A DNA stretch of 7,082 nt, taken from IMG/VR virus record IMGVR_UViG_2695420821_000006; one strand, written 5' to 3'. The translations under genes were made by a program, and so were the position numbers. The stretch is from a virus (lineage: Duplodnaviria > Heunggongvirae > Uroviricota > Caudoviricetes). How positions within the stretch are numbered: the stretch's first letter is position 1; the number at the start of each line of letters is the position of its first letter. The notes under the pieces were generated by a model. It was not told the origin of the DNA, ran no database searches, and saw nothing but the letters and a program-made list of their open reading frames with translations. Positions 1-7,082 of this stretch are shown here, piece by piece.

Positions 1-26
1 GTAAGCGTGCAGCAAGAACCGTATTG
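1..26. repeat. IS66 terminal inverted repeat (tnpC-proximal end)
   Basis: Starts GTAAGCGTGCAGCAAGAACCGT; pairs imperfectly with the reverse complement of 2429-2454 (shared GTAAGCGT, then CAGCA and CCGT blocks). Exact IR length is uncertain. Confidence 0.55.
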
Positions 27-37
27 ACGGGGATGTG

Positions 38-1576
38 TTATTCAGTCGGCAGTGCTACGCGCCAGGGGAGCAGTTCGCCGACCCGGTTTATCGGCCAGTC
101 GGCTATGACGTCAAGGACATAGCGGAGGTAGCTTTCTGGCTCCACTCCGTTCAGTTTGCACGTCCCGATCAGGCTGTACAGCAGCGCTCCCCGCTCTCCT
201 CCATGATCCGAACCGAAGAACAGGTAGTTTTTGCGGCCCAGACTGACCATCCGCAACGCATTTTCAGCGATGTTATTGTCCGCCTCAGCCCAGCCATCAT
301 CTGCATAGTACGTCAGCGCCGGCCACTGGTTCAGGGCGTATGCGAACGCTTTCGCCAGTTCTGAGTGTCGCGACAGGGTTTTCATCTTTTCACGCAGCCA
401 GCTTTCCAGGGATTTCAGCAGCGGTTTCGTTTTCAACTGACGTTCGGCAAGGCGCTGCTCCGCCGTCATTCCCCTTATCTCTGCCTCGATGGCGTACAGT
501 TCGCCGATCCGTTTCAGCGCTTCCTCCGTCAGGGCTGACGGGGTGCGAACGTGCACATCGTGGATTTTACGGCGGGCGTGAGCCCAACAGGCGGCTTCCG
601 TTATCCGGCCATCCCGGTACAGCTCGTTGAACCCGGCGTATGCATCCGCCTGCAGTACACCACTGAACCCCGCAAGATGGGTCTGCGGATGGATGCCTTT
701 TCTGTCCGGGCTGTAAGCGAACCACACCGCCGGCGCCAGCGTTGACCCGGCGTTACGGTCGTCACGAACGTAGGTCCATAACCGCCCGGTCTTCGTTTTC
801 TTATTGCCTGGCAACAGCACCGGGACAGGCGTGTCATCAGCATGGAGCTTACCGTCAGTCAGCACATAGTCCTGAAGCGCTTCTTCCAGCGGTGACAGTA
901 GCCGGCAGCATGCATCCACCCAGCCCGACAGCAGTGAACGACTCAGCTCCACGCCCTGGCGGCCGTACATTTCAGACTGGCGGTACAGCGGGGTGTGCTC
1001 TGCATACTTTGAGATCAGCACGCGGGCCAGCAGCCCCGGTCCTGCGATACCCCGCTCGATGGGCCGTGAAGGCGCGGGGGCCTGCACGATGGCATCGCAC
1101 TGAGTACAGGCATGCTTTTCACGTACAGTCCGGATAACCCGGAAGGCGCTGCGCATCAGCTCCAGCTGTTCGGCGGCATCCTCACCCAGATAGCTCAGCG
1201 AGCCTCCACATTCCGGGCAGCATGACGCTGCCGGCAGCAGCCGTTTTTCATCGCGGGGGAGTGATTCGGGGAACGGTTTGCGGGTGCGGGTTTGACGCAG
1301 CGGGCGCTGCACGGCCGGGTCGTCAACCCGACCGGTAAGGGTATCACTTTCTTTCTGAAGTGCCTTCAGGTCAGCTTCCATCTGTGCGATACGACGGGAG
1401 ACTTTTTCCGAGCGGCTGCCGAAGTTCATCCGGCGCAGCTTATCCAGCTGTGCCTGCAGATGGTCTATTTCGCGTTCACGCTCGTTCAGCTTTTCCTGCA
1501 GGGCACGGTTCAGCGCCTCCTGTTCGGCAAGGAGACGTTTCAGTGCATTGATATCGTCAGGAAGTGAGCTGCTCAT
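38..1576 (-). CDS. tnpC: IS66-family transposase (TnpC / Orf3), 512 aa
   Basis: 512-aa ORF with an N-terminal coiled-coil-like region ([19 protein letters not shown]...), a CxxC...CxxC zinc-finger-like pair (CCPECGG...CTQCD) and a long catalytic core; matches my recollection of IS66 TnpC architecture. It is the last of three co-oriented IS ORFs. Confidence 0.88.
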
Positions 1577-1624
1577 ACCGGGTATATTACCAGGCTCATT
1601 CAGCGTCGACCAGGATAAAGAGGC

Positions 1625-1972
1625 TTACAACATAGTCAGGGACGTAAGCAGTCTTTTAGGCTGCCGCCAGTCGATACCTTCCAGCAGCATCGCCAGCTGT
1701 GCCGGTGTGAGGAACACTTTGCCATCCCGGGCTGACGGCCAGGCGAAGCGGCCGCGCTCCAGCCGTTTGGTCAGCAGACACAGTCCATCGCCGGTAGACC
1801 AGAGGAGCTTTACCTGACTGCCATTACGCCCACGGAAGATAAAAACGTGACCTGACATCGGATCGTCTTTCAGCGTCGTCTGCACCTTTGCCGCCAGGCC
1901 GTTGAAGCCGTTTCTCATATCGGTGATGCCAGCGACCAGCCAGATCTTTGTCCCTGATGGTAATGGGATCAA
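1625..1972 (-). CDS. tnpB: IS66 Orf2 (TnpB-type accessory protein), 115 aa
   Basis: Translation MIPLPSGTKIWLVAGITDMRNGFNGLAAKVQ... has the characteristic IS66 Orf2 N-terminus; its start overlaps the tnpA stop by 4 bp. Confidence 0.85.
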   Translation of the reverse strand: MIPLPSGTKIWLVAGITDMRNGFNGLAAKVQTTLKDDPMSGHVFIFRGRNGSQVKLLWSTGDGLCLLTKRLERGRFAWPSARDGKVFLTPAQLAMLLEGIDWRQPKRLLTSLTML

Positions 1973-2373
1973 CGTTTGAGCTCCCGTATCAGCAGGTTCA
2001 GGATATTTTCGCTGATGGCACCATTCAGACGGAGTGATCCGTGCCGGAACGTCACTTCACAGCTGATATTGAGTGATTCAGGTGTCGCAGCAGCTACAGG
2101 TTGTGACCGGGGGGAGGTTGTAGGGACAACATCTTCGGCATCAAGTGTTATCGGGAGCAGCTCAGGCACGTTGTTTTCTGTTGTTGAAGGAGGACGTAGT
2201 TTTCCTTCGCGCCAGTACTGGCGCCACTTGAACAGCAAATTATCGTTGATCCCATGCTCACGAGCGAGTTGCGCTACGGAGATCTCTGGTCGATGCGAGA
2301 GTTCAACCATTTTGATTTTGAACTCAACGGGATAATTAGGGCTTTTTTTACGCACTGCGGTTAATGATTTCAT
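1969..2373 (-). CDS. tnpA: IS66 Orf1 (TnpA, helix-turn-helix transposase accessory protein), 134 aa
   Basis: N-terminal HTH-like region (EFKIKMVELSHRPEISVAQLAREHGINDNLLFKWRQ) typical of IS3/IS66 orfA proteins; first ORF inside the tnpA-proximal IR. Confidence 0.82.
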   Translation of the reverse strand: MKSLTAVRKKSPNYPVEFKIKMVELSHRPEISVAQLAREHGINDNLLFKWRQYWREGKLRPPSTTENNVPELLPITLDAEDVVPTTSPRSQPVAAATPESLNISCEVTFRHGSLRLNGAISENILNLLIRELKR

Positions 2374-2428
2374 GGATAGCGTCCACCATATTTGGTGTCC
2401 ACTATTCTCTCAGGAATTTCAGGATCTG

Positions 2429-2454
2429 CCAGACGGTGCTGAGACGACGCTTAC
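2429..2454. repeat. IS66 terminal inverted repeat (tnpA-proximal end)
   Basis: Reverse complement of 2429-2454 reads GTAAGCGTCGTCTCAGCACCGTCTGG, matching the pos 1-26 terminus in the first 8 nt and in later blocks. Confidence 0.55.
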
Positions 2455-2470
2455 AAATGGCGGTAGTGAA

Positions 2471-2653
2471 ATGCGAAAATTCAAAATAATTATTGAAACG
2501 GGAATAGCTGGTGGAGATTTTGAGGATGTATTCGAAGTAGATGATGACGCAACACCTGATGAAATTCATGACGAAGCAAAAGAAATTTTCTTTAACTACT
2601 GCAATTACTCATACCACGAAATAAAAGACGAAGAGGAAGGACAAAATGGCTGA
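2471..2653 (+). CDS. Small strongly acidic hypothetical protein (60 aa); first gene of the coupled operon
   Basis: ATG at 2471 is the first in-frame start outside the IS; the longer ORF-track call (2372..2653) begins inside the IS and is taken as read-through artefact. About 18 of 60 residues are D/E against 5 K/R. The stop overlaps the next start (ATGGCTGA). The RBS is weak (GGTAG). Confidence 0.5.
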   Translation: MRKFKIIIETGIAGGDFEDVFEVDDDATPDEIHDEAKEIFFNYCNYSYHEIKDEEEGQNG

Positions 2654-2822
2654 TTTTGGTTCAACTAAATATAACGCCAGTTTTGAAGAATGGCATGAAC
2701 TGTTAATGGATTATGCAGAGTTACGCGGTGGAAGTGCCGCTGATGCTGAAGCATGGCGTGATGATTATGAAGCAGGGAAAACTCCGGTCGAAGCATATTG
2801 TGATGAGTGGGGCGATGAATGA
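2646..2822 (+). CDS. Small strongly acidic hypothetical protein (58 aa)
   Basis: ORF MADFGSTKYNASFEEWHELLMDYAELRGGSAADAEAWRDDYEAGKTPVEAYCDEWGDE, below the ORF-track size cutoff. About 16 of 58 residues are D/E against 4 K/R. Its start overlaps the upstream stop and its stop overlaps the next start (ATGA at 2819-2822). Confidence 0.5.
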   Translation: MADFGSTKYNASFEEWHELLMDYAELRGGSAADAEAWRDDYEAGKTPVEAYCDEWGDE

Positions 2823-3178
2823 GCGAGATTAATTATCAGGAAGGGCATGAAAAGGCAGGGCAGGCAAAACCAGTGGCATGGCGATATCGCTACGTGAAAA
2901 AAGGCGTTACAGACTTTCAGGGGAAGCAGTGGGCTGGTGACTGGAAATATGTCCAGACAAAAGAAGATTGTAACGACAGACCGAACTATGAAATTCAGGC
3001 GTTATTCACGGCCCCGCCAGCCCCGGTGACATCAGAAGGACTAGTTAAAGCCGTGCGCTTTTATGAACAGGTAAAGCGTGAGAATCCACCCGTCGAAACA
3101 GGTGCATGGAAAGATGCTGTTGACTGGGTACTCAAAGAGGCTTGTCAGGTTGTAAACATTCGCATCAAAGGAGAATGA
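2819..3178 (+). CDS. Hypothetical protein, 119 aa (not recognised)
   Basis: Uninterrupted ORF with ATGA overlap to the upstream gene; the next gene starts 2 nt after its stop. W/Y-rich, no family recognised. Confidence 0.6.
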   Translation: MSEINYQEGHEKAGQAKPVAWRYRYVKKGVTDFQGKQWAGDWKYVQTKEDCNDRPNYEIQALFTAPPAPVTSEGLVKAVRFYEQVKRENPPVETGAWKDAVDWVLKEACQVVNIRIKGE

Positions 3179-3179
3179 G

Positions 3180-3695
3180 ATGGCGTTAACACACCGCGAA
3201 CTCTGTCAGATTGCCTACAGGTTCCTTAAGCGCAACGGGTTCAAGGTTTGCTTTCATGACCGCTTTGTTGCTGTAACCAGTACTGGAGAACAACCAGATG
3301 CTATGGGATTCAGAAATTCAGCATCATGCCTGATAGAGGCGAAGTGTTCTCGTGCTGACTTGTTGGCAGATAGAAAAAAGCGTTTCCGTAAAAATCCCTC
3401 TCTTGGCATGGGGGACTGGCGATTCTTTATTAGTGAGCCGGGAATTATTTCAATTGAGGATTTACCACCTGGCTGGGGATTACTTCACGTTGTTAACGGA
3501 AGAGTACGGAAAGTATATGGGTGGCCCAAGGGTAATTGCTGTTGGGGTAATCCTGACGATAAGCCATTTACCGGAAATAAGCAGGTTGAATGCGATTACA
3601 TGTTATCTGCATTAAGGCGCATGGAGTTGAGAGGGCACCTTAATGAAATATATGACGGTGTAATTGTTAATAAGAAAGAAGGAAACGCGGCATGA
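3180..3695 (+). CDS. Putative PD-(D/E)xK-fold nuclease-like protein (possibly MmcB-like), 171 aa
   Basis: Contains QPDAMGF followed about 12 residues later by LIEAKCSRADLLAD, i.e. a D ... E-x-K arrangement resembling the restriction-endonuclease-like catalytic motif. Family assignment is motif-based only. Confidence 0.6.
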   Translation: MALTHRELCQIAYRFLKRNGFKVCFHDRFVAVTSTGEQPDAMGFRNSASCLIEAKCSRADLLADRKKRFRKNPSLGMGDWRFFISEPGIISIEDLPPGWGLLHVVNGRVRKVYGWPKGNCCWGNPDDKPFTGNKQVECDYMLSALRRMELRGHLNEIYDGVIVNKKEGNAA

Positions 3696-4261
3696 TCACT
3701 ATTACCAAAGAGCGACTACTGACAATCAAGCAGTGGCGCGAAACATACGGACCTGGTAGCAACGTTGTGCTTCCAGCAGAAGAAGCGGAAGAGCTGGCAC
3801 GGATTGCACTGGCATCACTGGCAGCAGTATCGGATGAACGAGCAGCCTATGAATTATTTATGGAGAAGCGTTTCGGAGAATCTGTAGATCGCCGCAGAGC
3901 AAAAAATGGCGATAGAGAATACATGGCATGGGATATGGCGCTTGGCTGGATTATCTGGTGTCACCGCGCCGCCATGCTTCAGGCTGGAAACTTTCGGGAA
4001 CATAAGGGTTCGTCAACCAATAATTTTCGGGAAATCTCGGAAACGTCAACCAACCATCCGGTAACTCCGGATGGTTGGATAAGCTGTAGTGAGCGAATGC
4101 CGGATGACGGGCAGTGGTGCGTAGTGAACACAGAATACGGGTATTACGTGCAATGCTGGTCTGAAGGTCAAGGATGGCTTGGTGATGATATCAGCATCCC
4201 TGAATGCGATGTAATCAATCGGATGCTTCTACCTGAACCGCCGCAGAAGGTGCGCCAATGA
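3692..4261 (+). CDS. Phage-type protein with C-terminal DUF551-like domain, 189 aa
   Basis: C-terminus PDGWISCSERMPDDGQWCVVN...YYVQCW fits the W-I-S-x-x-(D/E)-R-(L/M)-P signature I associate with DUF551, which is common in lambdoid nin/early-region proteins. ATGA overlap with the upstream gene. The linker between domains contains a DNA-level repeat. Confidence 0.7.
   Translation: MITITKERLLTIKQWRETYGPGSNVVLPAEEAEELARIALASLAAVSDERAAYELFMEKRFGESVDRRRAKNGDREYMAWDMALGWIIWCHRAAMLQAGNFREHKGSSTNNFREISETSTNHPVTPDGWISCSERMPDDGQWCVVNTEYGYYVQCWSEGQGWLGDDISIPECDVINRMLLPEPPQKVRQ
3989..4053. repeat. Two imperfect ~32-bp direct repeats inside the DUF551 gene linker
   Basis: 3989-4020 AACTTTCGGGAACATAAGGGTTCGTCAACCAA and 4022-4053 AATTTTCGGGAAATCTCGGAAACGTCAACCAA; about 23 of 32 positions identical, with conserved TTCGGGAA and CGTCAACCAA ends. 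Encodes NFREHKGSSTN / NFREISETSTN. Confidence 0.7.
4050..4078. repeat. Perfect 12-bp inverted repeat with 5-bp spacer inside the DUF551 gene
   Basis: CCAACCATCCGG-TAACT-CCGGATGGTTGG; the arms are exact reverse complements. Located directly 3' of the direct repeats. Confidence 0.8.
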
Positions 4262-4556: not shown

Positions 4557-4568
4557 GGGTGCTTGAGG
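4557..4568 (+). promoter_or_regulatory. hok mRNA 5' element (tac-like) complementary to the 3' fbi-like element
   Basis: GGGTGCTTGAGG is complementary, with one bulge, to CCTCAACGCACCC at 4931-4943. It is followed by a 9-bp stem CTGTCTGCC / GGCAGACAG (4570-4578 with 4596-4604). Confidence 0.45.
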
Positions 4569-4609
4569 CTGTCTGCCTCGGGCATGCCGACGTAAGGCAG
4601 ACAGAGAAA

Positions 4610-4676
4610 AGCCCCAGTTAACATTATGCGTCTTGCAGGACGCTTAACATTAATCTGAGGCCATATCTATGACTTG
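4610..4676 (-). ncRNA. sok: Predicted Sok-like antisense RNA (approximate boundaries)
   Basis: A minus-strand promoter (features 4684-4712) would start transcription near 4676, giving an antisense RNA across the mok SD and start codon as in hok/sok systems. The 3' end is not defined; only a weak hairpin (GCGTC…GACGC) and a short T-run are visible. Confidence 0.4.
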
Positions 4677-4881
4677 CACACTTAGATTAGCCTCTTACGC
4701 GCCGAAAGGCAAGGAGCAGCAGGCTATGAAGCAGCAAAAGGCGATGCTAATCGCCCTGATCGTCATCTGTATTACCGTCGTTGTAACGGTACTGGTAACG
4801 AGGAAAGACCTCTGCGAGGTACGAATCCGAACCGGCCAGACGGAGGTCGCTGTCTTCACAGCTTACGAATCTGAGAAGTAA
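4669..4881 (+). CDS. mok: mok-type reading frame (70 codons) that includes the hok frame and shares its stop
   Basis: ATG at 4669 with SD GAGG (4657-4660); in frame with hok. The arrangement is as I recall for chromosomal mokC/hokC. This is the target region for the antisense RNA. Confidence 0.5.
   Translation: MTCTLRLASYAPKGKEQQAMKQQKAMLIALIVICITVVVTVLVTRKDLCEVRIRTGQTEVAVFTAYESEK
4684..4712 (-). promoter_or_regulatory. Putative sok promoter
   Basis: On the minus strand: TTGCCT (complement of 4707-4712), 17-nt spacer, TAATCT (complement of 4684-4689); it lies inside the start of the mok frame, as expected for sok. Confidence 0.4.
4726..4881 (+). CDS. hok: Hok/Gef-family type I toxin (small membrane killer protein), 51 aa
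   Basis: MKQQKAMLIALIVICITVVVTVLVTRKDLCEVRIRTGQTEVAVFTAYESEK aligns by eye with Hok (…[27 protein letters not shown]): one transmembrane helix followed by the conserved TRK-LCE-R…EVA-F-AYES-K tail. RBS AAGGAG at 4711-4716. Confidence 0.88.
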   Translation: MKQQKAMLIALIVICITVVVTVLVTRKDLCEVRIRTGQTEVAVFTAYESEK

Positions 4882-4943: not shown

Positions 4944-4951
4944 GCACTTAA

Positions 4952-4976
4952 CCCGCTTCTGCGGGTTTTGTTTTTT
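4952..4976 (+). terminator. Rho-independent terminator of the hok mRNA
   Basis: CCCGC-TTCT-GCGGG stem-loop (4952-4965) followed by TTTTGTTTTTT (4966-4976). Confidence 0.7.
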
Positions 4977-5047: not shown

Positions 5048-5239
5048 ATGGCGCAACGTATAAAATCCCACAATTCTGAAGCCGTCCCGGCCATTAAGCG
5101 GGGGCGGCATTCGCACGTATTTAAAACCGACTGGTACCAGCATCCCCCATGCACTGAAGAACAGGCCGAATGGCTGATTCAGTGTTACCGCAGGCGCGGA
5201 TATTGGTGTGTCACGTTAACCGGAAAAAGGAAAGTTTGA
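5048..5239 (+). CDS. Hypothetical 63-aa ORF, possibly the 5' part of a frameshifted gene continuing into the TerB-like frame
   Basis: ATG at 5048 with RBS GGAGA (5038-5042); the ORF track starts it at an upstream GTG (5030). It ends at TGA 5237-5239, directly after an A5 run (5224-5228) where a +1 shift would enter the TerB-like frame. Confidence 0.3.
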   Translation: MAQRIKSHNSEAVPAIKRGRHSHVFKTDWYQHPPCTEEQAEWLIQCYRRRGYWCVTLTGKRKV

Positions 5240-5776: not shown

Positions 5777-6090
5777 TTTTTTTGTTTGCTGTTTATTAAA
5801 AACACTTCTGCATGGTGAATCCCCCTGTGCGGTGGGGCAATCAGCAAGAAGGAATATGGGGTAATCGCGGATTCAGGTGCTGATACTGAATTCACCGGGA
5901 GGCACCCGGCACCATGCTTTGCCACAAAAGTGTTATTTCTGTTTTTCTCAAACTATCATCGTTATCCCTTTATTTTCGGCTGCGCATGGCGCGGCCTTTT
6001 TTTTACGACCAGCCACTGGCAGATGGTCATCCTGTGATTTGATTCCGCTTCCGGCTTTTTAACTCTGTTCCTCTACACGGGAGAAATTCG

Positions 6091-7082
6091 ATGTCGATTA
6101 AACATTATGATGTTGTCAGGGCGGCGTCGCCGTCAGACCTTGCGGAAAAGCTGACACACAAACTGAAAGAGGGCTGGCAGCCATACGGCGGACCGGTTGC
6201 CATTACGCCGTACACACTGATGCAGGCGGTGGCTATTGAAGGAGAGCCACAGGTCGGCCCTTCATCTGAGCCGGATTGGTACTACGTCATCGTACTGGCC
6301 GGGCAGTCCAATGCCATGGCTTACGGTGAAGGGCTTCCGCTGCCGGATTCATACGATGCTCCGGATCCGCGCATTAAACAGCTGGCGCGCCGCAGTACAG
6401 TGACGCCGGGCGGGGCTGCCTGCAGATATAACGATATTATTCCGGCTGACCACTGTCTGCATGATGTGCAGGATATGAGTACGCTGAATCATCCGAGGGC
6501 TGACCTGAGCAAAGGGCAGTACGGCTGTGTCGGCCAGGGTTTACATATTGCCAAAAAACTGCTCCCGTATATCCCGAATAACGCGGGGATCCTGCTGGTA
6601 CCATGCTGTCGTGGTGGTTCGGCATTTACCCAGGGCGCGGAGGGGACATTCAGCGAGTCCACGGGGGCCAGTCAGGATTCGGCACGCTGGGGGGTGGGCA
6701 AGCCGTTATATCAGGATCTGATTTCCCGCACAAAAGCGGCATTGCAGAAAAATCCCAAAAACGTTCTGCTGGCCGTCTGCTGGATGCAGGGTGAGTTTGA
6801 CATGAGCGCCGCCACCCACGCACAGCAACCTGCGCTGTTTACAGCCATGCTGACACAGTTTCGTGCTGACCTCTCCGTGTTTAACGCGCAGTGCCATGGT
6901 GGCAGCGCTGCAGATGTGCCGTGGGTTTGTGGTGACACGACGTATTACTGGAAAAATACATACGCTACCCAATACGACACCGTGTACGGCGGGTATAAAA
7001 ACAGGGAGAGTGAGGGCGTTTATTTTGTGCCCTTCATGACAGACGGTAACGGCGTCAATACCGCCACTAACGCGCCGGCAGA
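6091..7082 (+). CDS. nanS: Prophage-type NanS-p-like 9-O-acetyl-sialate esterase (DUF1737-like N-terminal domain + SASA/GDSL-like esterase domain); 3' end truncated by the window
   Basis: RBS GGGAGA 8 nt before the ATG at 6091. N-terminus MSIKHYDVVRAASPSDLAEKLTHKLKEGWQPYGGPV… resembles the DUF1737 domain, followed by YYVIVLAGQSNAMAYGEG with the GQSN catalytic-serine motif of sialate O-acetylesterases. Open frame runs to the window end (330 codons, no stop). Confidence 0.78.
   Translation, partial: MSIKHYDVVRAASPSDLAEKLTHKLKEGWQPYGGPVAITPYTLMQAVAIEGEPQVGPSSEPDWYYVIVLAGQSNAMAYGEGLPLPDSYDAPDPRIKQLARRSTVTPGGAACRYNDIIPADHCLHDVQDMSTLNHPRADLSKGQYGCVGQGLHIAKKLLPYIPNNAGILLVPCCRGGSAFTQGAEGTFSESTGASQDSARWGVGKPLYQDLISRTKAALQKNPKNVLLAVCWMQGEFDMSAATHAQQPALFTAMLTQFRADLSVFNAQCHGGSAADVPWVCGDTTYYWKNTYATQYDTVYGGYKNRESEGVYFVPFMTDGNGVNTATNAPA

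Follow-up and report, generated by a model that had tools for sequence, protein, structure and literature searches.

The gene at positions 3180-3695 on the plus strand of IMG/VR virus record IMGVR_UViG_2695420821_000006, a 7,082-nucleotide stretch of tailed-phage (Caudoviricetes) DNA that is referred to here as the window, encodes a 171-amino-acid protein that represents a divergent branch of the MmcB-like family carried by phages, and not a canonical MmcB. We consider it somewhat probable that this product acts as a divalent-metal-dependent DNA endonuclease, built of a single MmcB-like domain, that processes damaged or branched phage DNA. MmcB is described as an SOS-regulated PD-(D/E)xK endonuclease required for resistance to mitomycin C and cisplatin (PMC9578287, citing Lopes-Kulishev 2015); Caulobacter crescentus requires it for survival of mitomycin C, and it is thought to work with translesion polymerases on crosslinks (PMC9578287). 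The open reading frame in the window is intact and lies exactly where a first-pass annotation, made from the DNA sequence, had placed it, with an ATG at 3180, a TGA at 3693-3695, and 171 codons. Its predicted product is basic (isoelectric point [pI] of 9.26).

The assignment is carried by profile-profile comparison. MmcB-like proteins were collected with the sequence fragment of 3DNX, the crystal structure of Ruegeria pomeroyi SPO1766, which stands as the structural representative of Pfam PF06319 (DUF1052, now MmcB-like) in a census of PD-(D/E)xK proteins (PMC3424549); the MmcB-like family is also recorded as COG5321. All of the collected proteins carry PF06319, many are named MmcB family DNA repair protein, and 20 were aligned. 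When the family of the window protein was compared with these 20 proteins by hhalign, the probability was 97.9-98.0% and the E value ranged from 5e-13 to 2e-13 (best, 1.9e-13), and in the relaxed alignment residues 2-153 of the window protein were matched to residues 4-140 of a 148-amino-acid MmcB protein. We therefore show here, at the level of sequence profiles, full-length homology to MmcB-like proteins, which upholds the tentative MmcB-like resemblance suggested in the first-pass annotation. The equivalences run through the length of both proteins: D40 pairs with D39, E53-x-K55 with E53-C-K55, R81 with R76, S-R-x-D-(F/L)-x-x-D-x-x-K with S-R-A-D-F-Q-x-D-x-K, L-P-x-x-W-G-L with L-P-x-x-x-G-L, and S-A-L-R-R with H-A-A-R-R. 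The signature helix of MmcB, K-S-S-R-A-D-F-x-x-D-x-K, is present in the window protein as K55-C-S-R-A-D-L-L-A-D-R-K-K. The elements held in common with the MmcB-like family are thus the catalytic D and ExK, the SRxDFxxDxK helix, an arginine on beta4, the LPxxxGL turn, and a C-terminal A-x-R-R helix. In addition, a profile of a 47-sequence family alignment recovered 3dnx from among PDB sequences with an E value of 2.1e-4. The window protein belongs to phrog_9263 (E, 1e-121) and phrog_631 (E, 2e-93), both without functional annotation and neither recording the MmcB link. It matches phrog_5429, labelled "DNA repair protein", weakly (E, 0.003), while its relatives match that group with E values down to 6e-14.

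Conservation within the family points to the same superfamily. The segment that the first-pass annotation quoted as a PD-(D/E)xK core corresponds to E37-Q-P-D40 ... C50-L-I-E53-A-K55-C-S-R-A-D60-L-L-A-D64 (DNA 3288-3371). D40, E53, and K55 are invariant in 25 relatives with 59-88% identity, and wider counts were made over 147 representatives of 50%-identity clusters, with denominators that vary by position. Loss of the catalytic residues among homologues had been named as the outcome that would speak against the motif; instead, D40, E53, K55, E37, and a D or E at position 27 all exceed 99% conservation across clusters less than 50% identical. This level of conservation argues that an active site is under selection, and we show here a set of residues of active-site type that, judging from these alignments, is under strong selection. 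The features of the coding sequence are as follows.

3180..3695, plus strand: coding sequence of the MmcB-like PD-(D/E)xK putative nuclease, PHROG 9263/631, identified from its open reading frame, family searches, and pI
3192..3194, plus strand: codon of H5, at the start of helix alpha1; conserved in 124/128 representatives, branch specific and not common to MmcB
3258..3260, plus strand: codon of D27, where beta1 ends; 132/133 representatives have D or E, and the position aligns with the invariant E29 of MmcB; candidate extra metal ligand
3288..3299, plus strand: E37-Q-P-D40, in which D40 is the motif II Asp directly before beta2 (residues 41-45); E37 in 140/141, D40 in 140/141
3336..3344, plus strand: E53-A-K55, the (D/E)xK motif III, at the end of beta3 (residues 48-54); E53 in 142/143, K55 in 142/143
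3348..3389, plus strand: helix alpha2 signature S57-R58-x-D60-(F/L)-x-x-D64-x-x-K67-x-x-R70, recognized by conservation (D60 in 143/143, D64 in 143/145, K67 in 144/144, R70 in 144/144); the S-R-x-D-F-x-x-D-x-K part is common to MmcB (ECKSSRADFQADxK)
3381..3404, plus strand: first insertion relative to MmcB in the alignment, about residues 68-75, R-F-R-K-N-P-S-L, which holds the invariant R70
3420..3422, plus strand: codon of R81, at the start of beta4; 145/146 representatives, aligning with R76 of MmcB
3462..3482, plus strand: L95-P96-x-x-W99-G100-L101, the turn into beta5, aligning with LPxxxGL of MmcB
3528..3560, plus strand: second insertion relative to MmcB in the alignment, about residues 117-127, K-G-N-C-C-W-G-N-P-D-D, a variable loop
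3588..3620, plus strand: C-terminal helix E137 ... S-A-L-R146-R147, aligning with the HAARRL helix of MmcB; E137 kept in 128/131 representatives

Structure prediction placed these residues in the nuclease core that the first-pass annotation had proposed. AlphaFold models built from a 25-sequence alignment (model 1; predicted local distance difference test [pLDDT], 80; predicted template modelling score [pTM], 0.77) and from a 47-sequence alignment (model 2; pLDDT, 94.8; pTM, 0.88; all five models at least 93 in pLDDT) have essentially identical secondary structure, with helices at residues 5-18, 58-64, and 134-150 and strands at 23-26, 41-45, 48-54, 80-85, 100-105, and 108-113. The predicted fold is the alpha-beta-beta-beta-alpha-beta restriction-endonuclease core of the PD-(D/E)xK superfamily. 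In both models D40 lies just before beta2 and E53 and K55 lie at the close of beta3, so that the core fold, the Asp before beta2, and the ExK on beta3, all marks of the superfamily, occur together with their conservation. Foldseek searches were run with model 1; against the PDB, the sole match below an E value of 1e-3 was 3dnx (E, 1.2e-5), and 3DNX is thus, of known structures, the closest to the model. Among viral models (BFVD), some of the matches were phage proteins that bear the name MmcB family DNA repair protein.

Several observations nevertheless weigh against reading the protein as an MmcB-type nuclease. The window protein had no match in Pfam or NCBIfam at an E value of 1 or less and did not reach the curated threshold for MmcB, and single-sequence searches of Pfam, NCBIfam, PADLOC, and PDB sequences gave no match. 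H5 and E37 are conserved in the phage branch only, so specificity may differ from that of MmcB. The canonical MmcB gene is chromosomal, under LexA control, and mainly alpha-proteobacterial (PMC3424549, PMC9578287), whereas members of the phage branch lie in early phage operons, in phages and prophages of Enterobacterales, Vibrio, and others; the window gene itself sits in such an operon, and a LexA-box search found no LexA-box-like site near it. Finally, RusA or NinG already resolve junctions in many of the same phages. Because homology to MmcB is combined with failure to reach the curated thresholds, with two insertions of its own (about residues 68-75 and 117-127; identity to 3DNX, about 23-28%), and with the branch-specific H5 and E37, we set the protein apart from canonical MmcB.

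If the protein is an MmcB-like endonuclease, the chemistry of the superfamily suggests how it might work. D40 and E53, possibly with D27, would hold one or two divalent metal ions, and K55 would position the attacking water or serve as a general-base helper in hydrolysis of a phosphodiester bond of the DNA; R58, K67, R70, R81, R146, and R147, all basic and conserved, may grip the DNA backbone. To judge from its context, the protein would be expressed from the rightward early operon of lambdoid prophages, either early in the lytic phase or once the prophage is induced, and would act alone, without a fixed partner. By analogy with MmcB, the substrate may be damaged or branched DNA, the protein serving as a helper in repair or in replication and recombination. 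Since DNA damage induces such prophages, a nuclease that processes lesions could help to clean the phage's own template. A more specific proposal, which we regard as speculative and rather doubtful, is that damage-inducible temperate phages (Shiga toxin [Stx] phages, Qin/Rac-type lambdoids, and P1/P7) carry their own MmcB-type nuclease, by which crosslinks or bulky adducts on the template are unhooked or incised right after SOS induction.

The competing explanation that survives best, one that we judge unlikely, makes the protein an Hjc-type resolvase of Holliday junctions or branched DNA, which would resolve recombination or replication intermediates before packaging, as RusA or NinG (Rap) do in other lambdoid phages. 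Hjc (PF01870), AHJR-like, and YraN/UPF0102 proteins have the same minimal PD-(D/E)xK core and a similar size, and they draw weak matches from many members of the family: among the Pfam matches of 47 relatives, all of them weak, 28 were to Hjc (best E, 1.3e-4), 12 to MmcB-like (best E for PF06319, 2.9e-4), 4 to AHJR-like, and 2 to UPF0102. Hjc was also the second PDB sequence match of the family profile (E, 0.28). Against this, the window protein itself lacks any such family-level match, Hjc scored much lower in the structural comparison, and the closest structure is MmcB-like. The genomic setting bears on the question from both sides. Intact lambdoid prophages encode an identical protein, and the order there is integrase, RecE-like YdfE protein, DicB, repressor, Cro/YdaS, YdaT, replication genes, DUF977, DUF7167, 58-amino-acid gene, 119-amino-acid gene, nuclease, DUF551, hok, DUF968, RusA, Q, and methylase; the nin-type location suggested in the first-pass annotation is therefore borne out, with the gene between the replication genes and DUF968-RusA-Q, and NinB or NinG adjoins it in several loci. 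The nucleases RusA and NinG (Rap) and the recombination mediator NinB (Orf) have this setting and early expression in common with the window gene, often only a few genes away, but none of them was matched by the window protein at the level of sequence family or structure. In every intact relative examined, RusA is encoded by the same operon, 2.7 kb downstream of the gene, and of the 50 viral loci with enough flank, 17 have RusA or NinG no more than 6 kb downstream. Anticorrelation with RusA or NinG, as a sign of functional replacement, was sought and not found in these loci; since these resolvases reside alongside it, the putative nuclease does not replace them.

The gene is the fourth of a five-gene block, as indicated by tight packing and by the absence of promoter-like or terminator-like sites on the plus strand across 2372-4261. 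It is translationally coupled to both neighbors: the stop codon of the 119-amino-acid gene at 3176-3178 stands beside the ribosome-binding site and ATG of the nuclease gene, which indicates coupling upstream, and the nuclease stop overlaps the ATG of the DUF551 gene in an ATGA at 3692-3695. The block and its elements are as follows.

2471..4261, plus strand: five co-oriented, tightly packed genes (DUF7167, 58-amino-acid, 119-amino-acid, nuclease, DUF551), from the open reading frame list and family searches
2471-2653, plus strand: DUF7167 gene, 60 amino acids, product pI of 4.09
2646-2822, plus strand: 58-amino-acid gene, product pI of 4.05
2819-3178, plus strand: 119-amino-acid gene, near-neutral product, pI of 7.7
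3170..3173, plus strand: ribosome-binding site GGAG, 6 nucleotides 5' of the ATG of the nuclease gene, read from the sequence
3692-4261, plus strand: DUF551 gene, 189 amino acids

The 119- and 189-amino-acid neighbors both match phrog_660, the latter within residues 45-96, and database relatives of the nuclease exist as fusions to Ea22-like or DUF551 segments; together these observations suggest frequent recombination at the gene boundaries of a mosaic block.

This neighborhood also gives rise to a second alternative, slightly less likely than the resolvase, in which the protein is a weapon directed at host or competitor DNA (in host takeover, in superinfection exclusion, or as an abortive-infection or toxin effector), perhaps restrained by a small acidic neighbor. 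The gene lies in a mosaic accessory region of prophages, with two small acidic proteins (pI about 4.1) encoded upstream in the operon and a hok/sok locus downstream. The first-pass annotation had placed the nuclease directly after two acidic proteins and raised a toxin or defense module on that basis; the acidic pair is indeed there, but the near-neutral 119-amino-acid protein intervenes, and the module itself is not supported. None of the five operon proteins has a PADLOC match at an E value of 1 or less. In a sample of 80 viral loci with relatives, the 512 neighboring proteins fell into 359 clusters, a highly mosaic context, and homologues of the two acidic proteins or of the 119-amino-acid protein were found in none of the 80. 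No conserved partner gene emerged from these loci, as no neighbor occurred in more than 15 (DUF551/Ea22-like in 15, NinG in 14, NinB in 9). Furthermore, the protein is a bare catalytic domain without a sensor or regulatory domain, and the gene is present and intact in 931 of 5,426 complete Escherichia coli genomes (17%; at least 90% DNA identity), often in several copies. Virulent phages of the Ackermannviridae also carry homologues beside replication genes, as in phage PhiSH19, where the homologue immediately precedes the primase gene. It is very improbable that the protein binds DNA without catalytic activity, having retained the fold alone: some proteins of PD-(D/E)xK fold are noncatalytic, and the acidic residue that helix alpha1 usually has is poorly kept in this family (63/128 representatives have E at position 7), but the near-invariance of D40, E53, K55, E37, and D27 described above stands against it.

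The family to which this MmcB-like protein belongs is large and widespread. A word-indexed protein search returned 308 relatives, all unnamed and all from Enterobacterales, and an exhaustive profile search returned 3,316 50%-identity clusters at an E value of 1e-3 or less, 2,402 of them at 1e-10 or less. Relatives occur on at least 499 viral contigs and in 642 annotated phage records, including Stx1 and Stx2 phages, P1/P7 (Upf89.0), Klebsiella, Vibrio, and Leptospira phages, and virulent Ackermannviridae, whose relatives carry the N-terminal 105 residues. Among matching records, most Stx-converting phages carry the family. In Stx phages and Shigella phages the same block of about 950 bp lies among ea-type genes, and the P7 copy, upf89.0, belongs to an operon downstream of a C1 operator that would be under C1 repressor control. 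The occurrences in E. coli number 1,049 chromosomal and 250 plasmid places. For the neighbors of distant homologues in a Vibrio phage and in PhiSH19, Pfam added nothing to an annotated primase.

Annotation of the family is uneven. The branch is labelled hypothetical in RefSeq and GenBank; MmcB-like labels on phage proteins are already in databases and in a few genome papers, and our literature search on phage MmcB-like members found no functional study of any of them. The label "adenylosuccinate synthase" has been given to homologues in several phage records from Vibrio, Pseudomonas, Shigella, and Salmonella, and it looks like a propagated misannotation; one homologue of 262 amino acids, in Vibrio phage vB_VpaS_VP-RY-9 (2929-3717), matches phrog_631 and phrog_5429 only and has no Pfam family. 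A widespread 111-amino-acid form (645 members) was considered as an inactivated allele and rejected, being a gene call from an internal TTG. At NZ_CP180607.1 821083-821598, RefSeq has a frameshifted pseudogene and a 110-amino-acid protein, and the DNA translates as an intact 171-amino-acid open reading frame. Longer members of the family show fusions to a TniB-like ATPase, to a dATP/dGTP pyrophosphohydrolase, or to Ea22/DUF551 segments; these were rejected as functional clues, since they look like read-through or mosaic joins with neighboring phage genes.

The prophage represented by the window has been rearranged on both sides of the block. A complete IS66-family element, ISEc22-like, occupies window 1-2455 and is 99.9% identical to a copy in NZ_CP117001.1; its genes are the following.

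38-1576, minus strand: tnpC
1625-1972, minus strand: tnpB
1969-2373, minus strand: tnpA

The element ends 15 bases before the DUF7167 start codon, which separates the operon from the promoter upstream of it. The copy of this insertion sequence in NZ_CP117001.1 is placed some 230 bp farther along, past the DUF7167 gene, and given these differing positions the two IS66 insertions appear to be independent. Downstream, about 2.9 kb is absent at window positions of about 5202-5231 by comparison with the closely related NZ_CP180607.1 and with intact prophages that have an identical nuclease; in those relatives it comprises most of a 90-amino-acid gene, DUF968, RusA, antiterminator Q, and three tRNA genes, and its loss leaves the window prophage without its late-gene activator and RusA resolvase. 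The window also holds a hokD-type type I toxin-antitoxin locus at 4557-4881, with an Rfam match to sok antisense RNA (114.8 bits) at 4557-4731, a mok/hok open reading frame at 4669-4881, and a terminator-like hairpin at 4950-4967. An Rfam match to the small RNA family STnc100 (100.8 bits) lies at 5781-5953, between the DUF3927 gene and the open reading frame at the 3' edge; the latter, at least 346 codons long (about 6045-7082, plus strand), exits the 3' end of the window and corresponds to a 644-amino-acid DUF1737/SASA/DUF6645 protein of related prophages.

In sum, a large family of about 3,300 50%-identity clusters, labelled "hypothetical" and without a Pfam or NCBIfam model, gains from the MmcB link a function that can be tested and well-defined active-site residues to mutate, and the same link would permit the annotation of many phage and prophage genes. 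In other respects the protein is ordinary, another stand-alone PD-(D/E)xK nuclease in a phage early region, and, as an E. coli phage homologue of MmcB, it would offer a convenient model for MmcB-type nucleases. Should the more specific proposal of lesion processing right after SOS induction be true, phage yield would hinge on the nuclease gene after treatment with mitomycin C, by which Stx phages are standardly induced, and what the MmcB family cuts could for the first time be determined in a tractable E. coli system.
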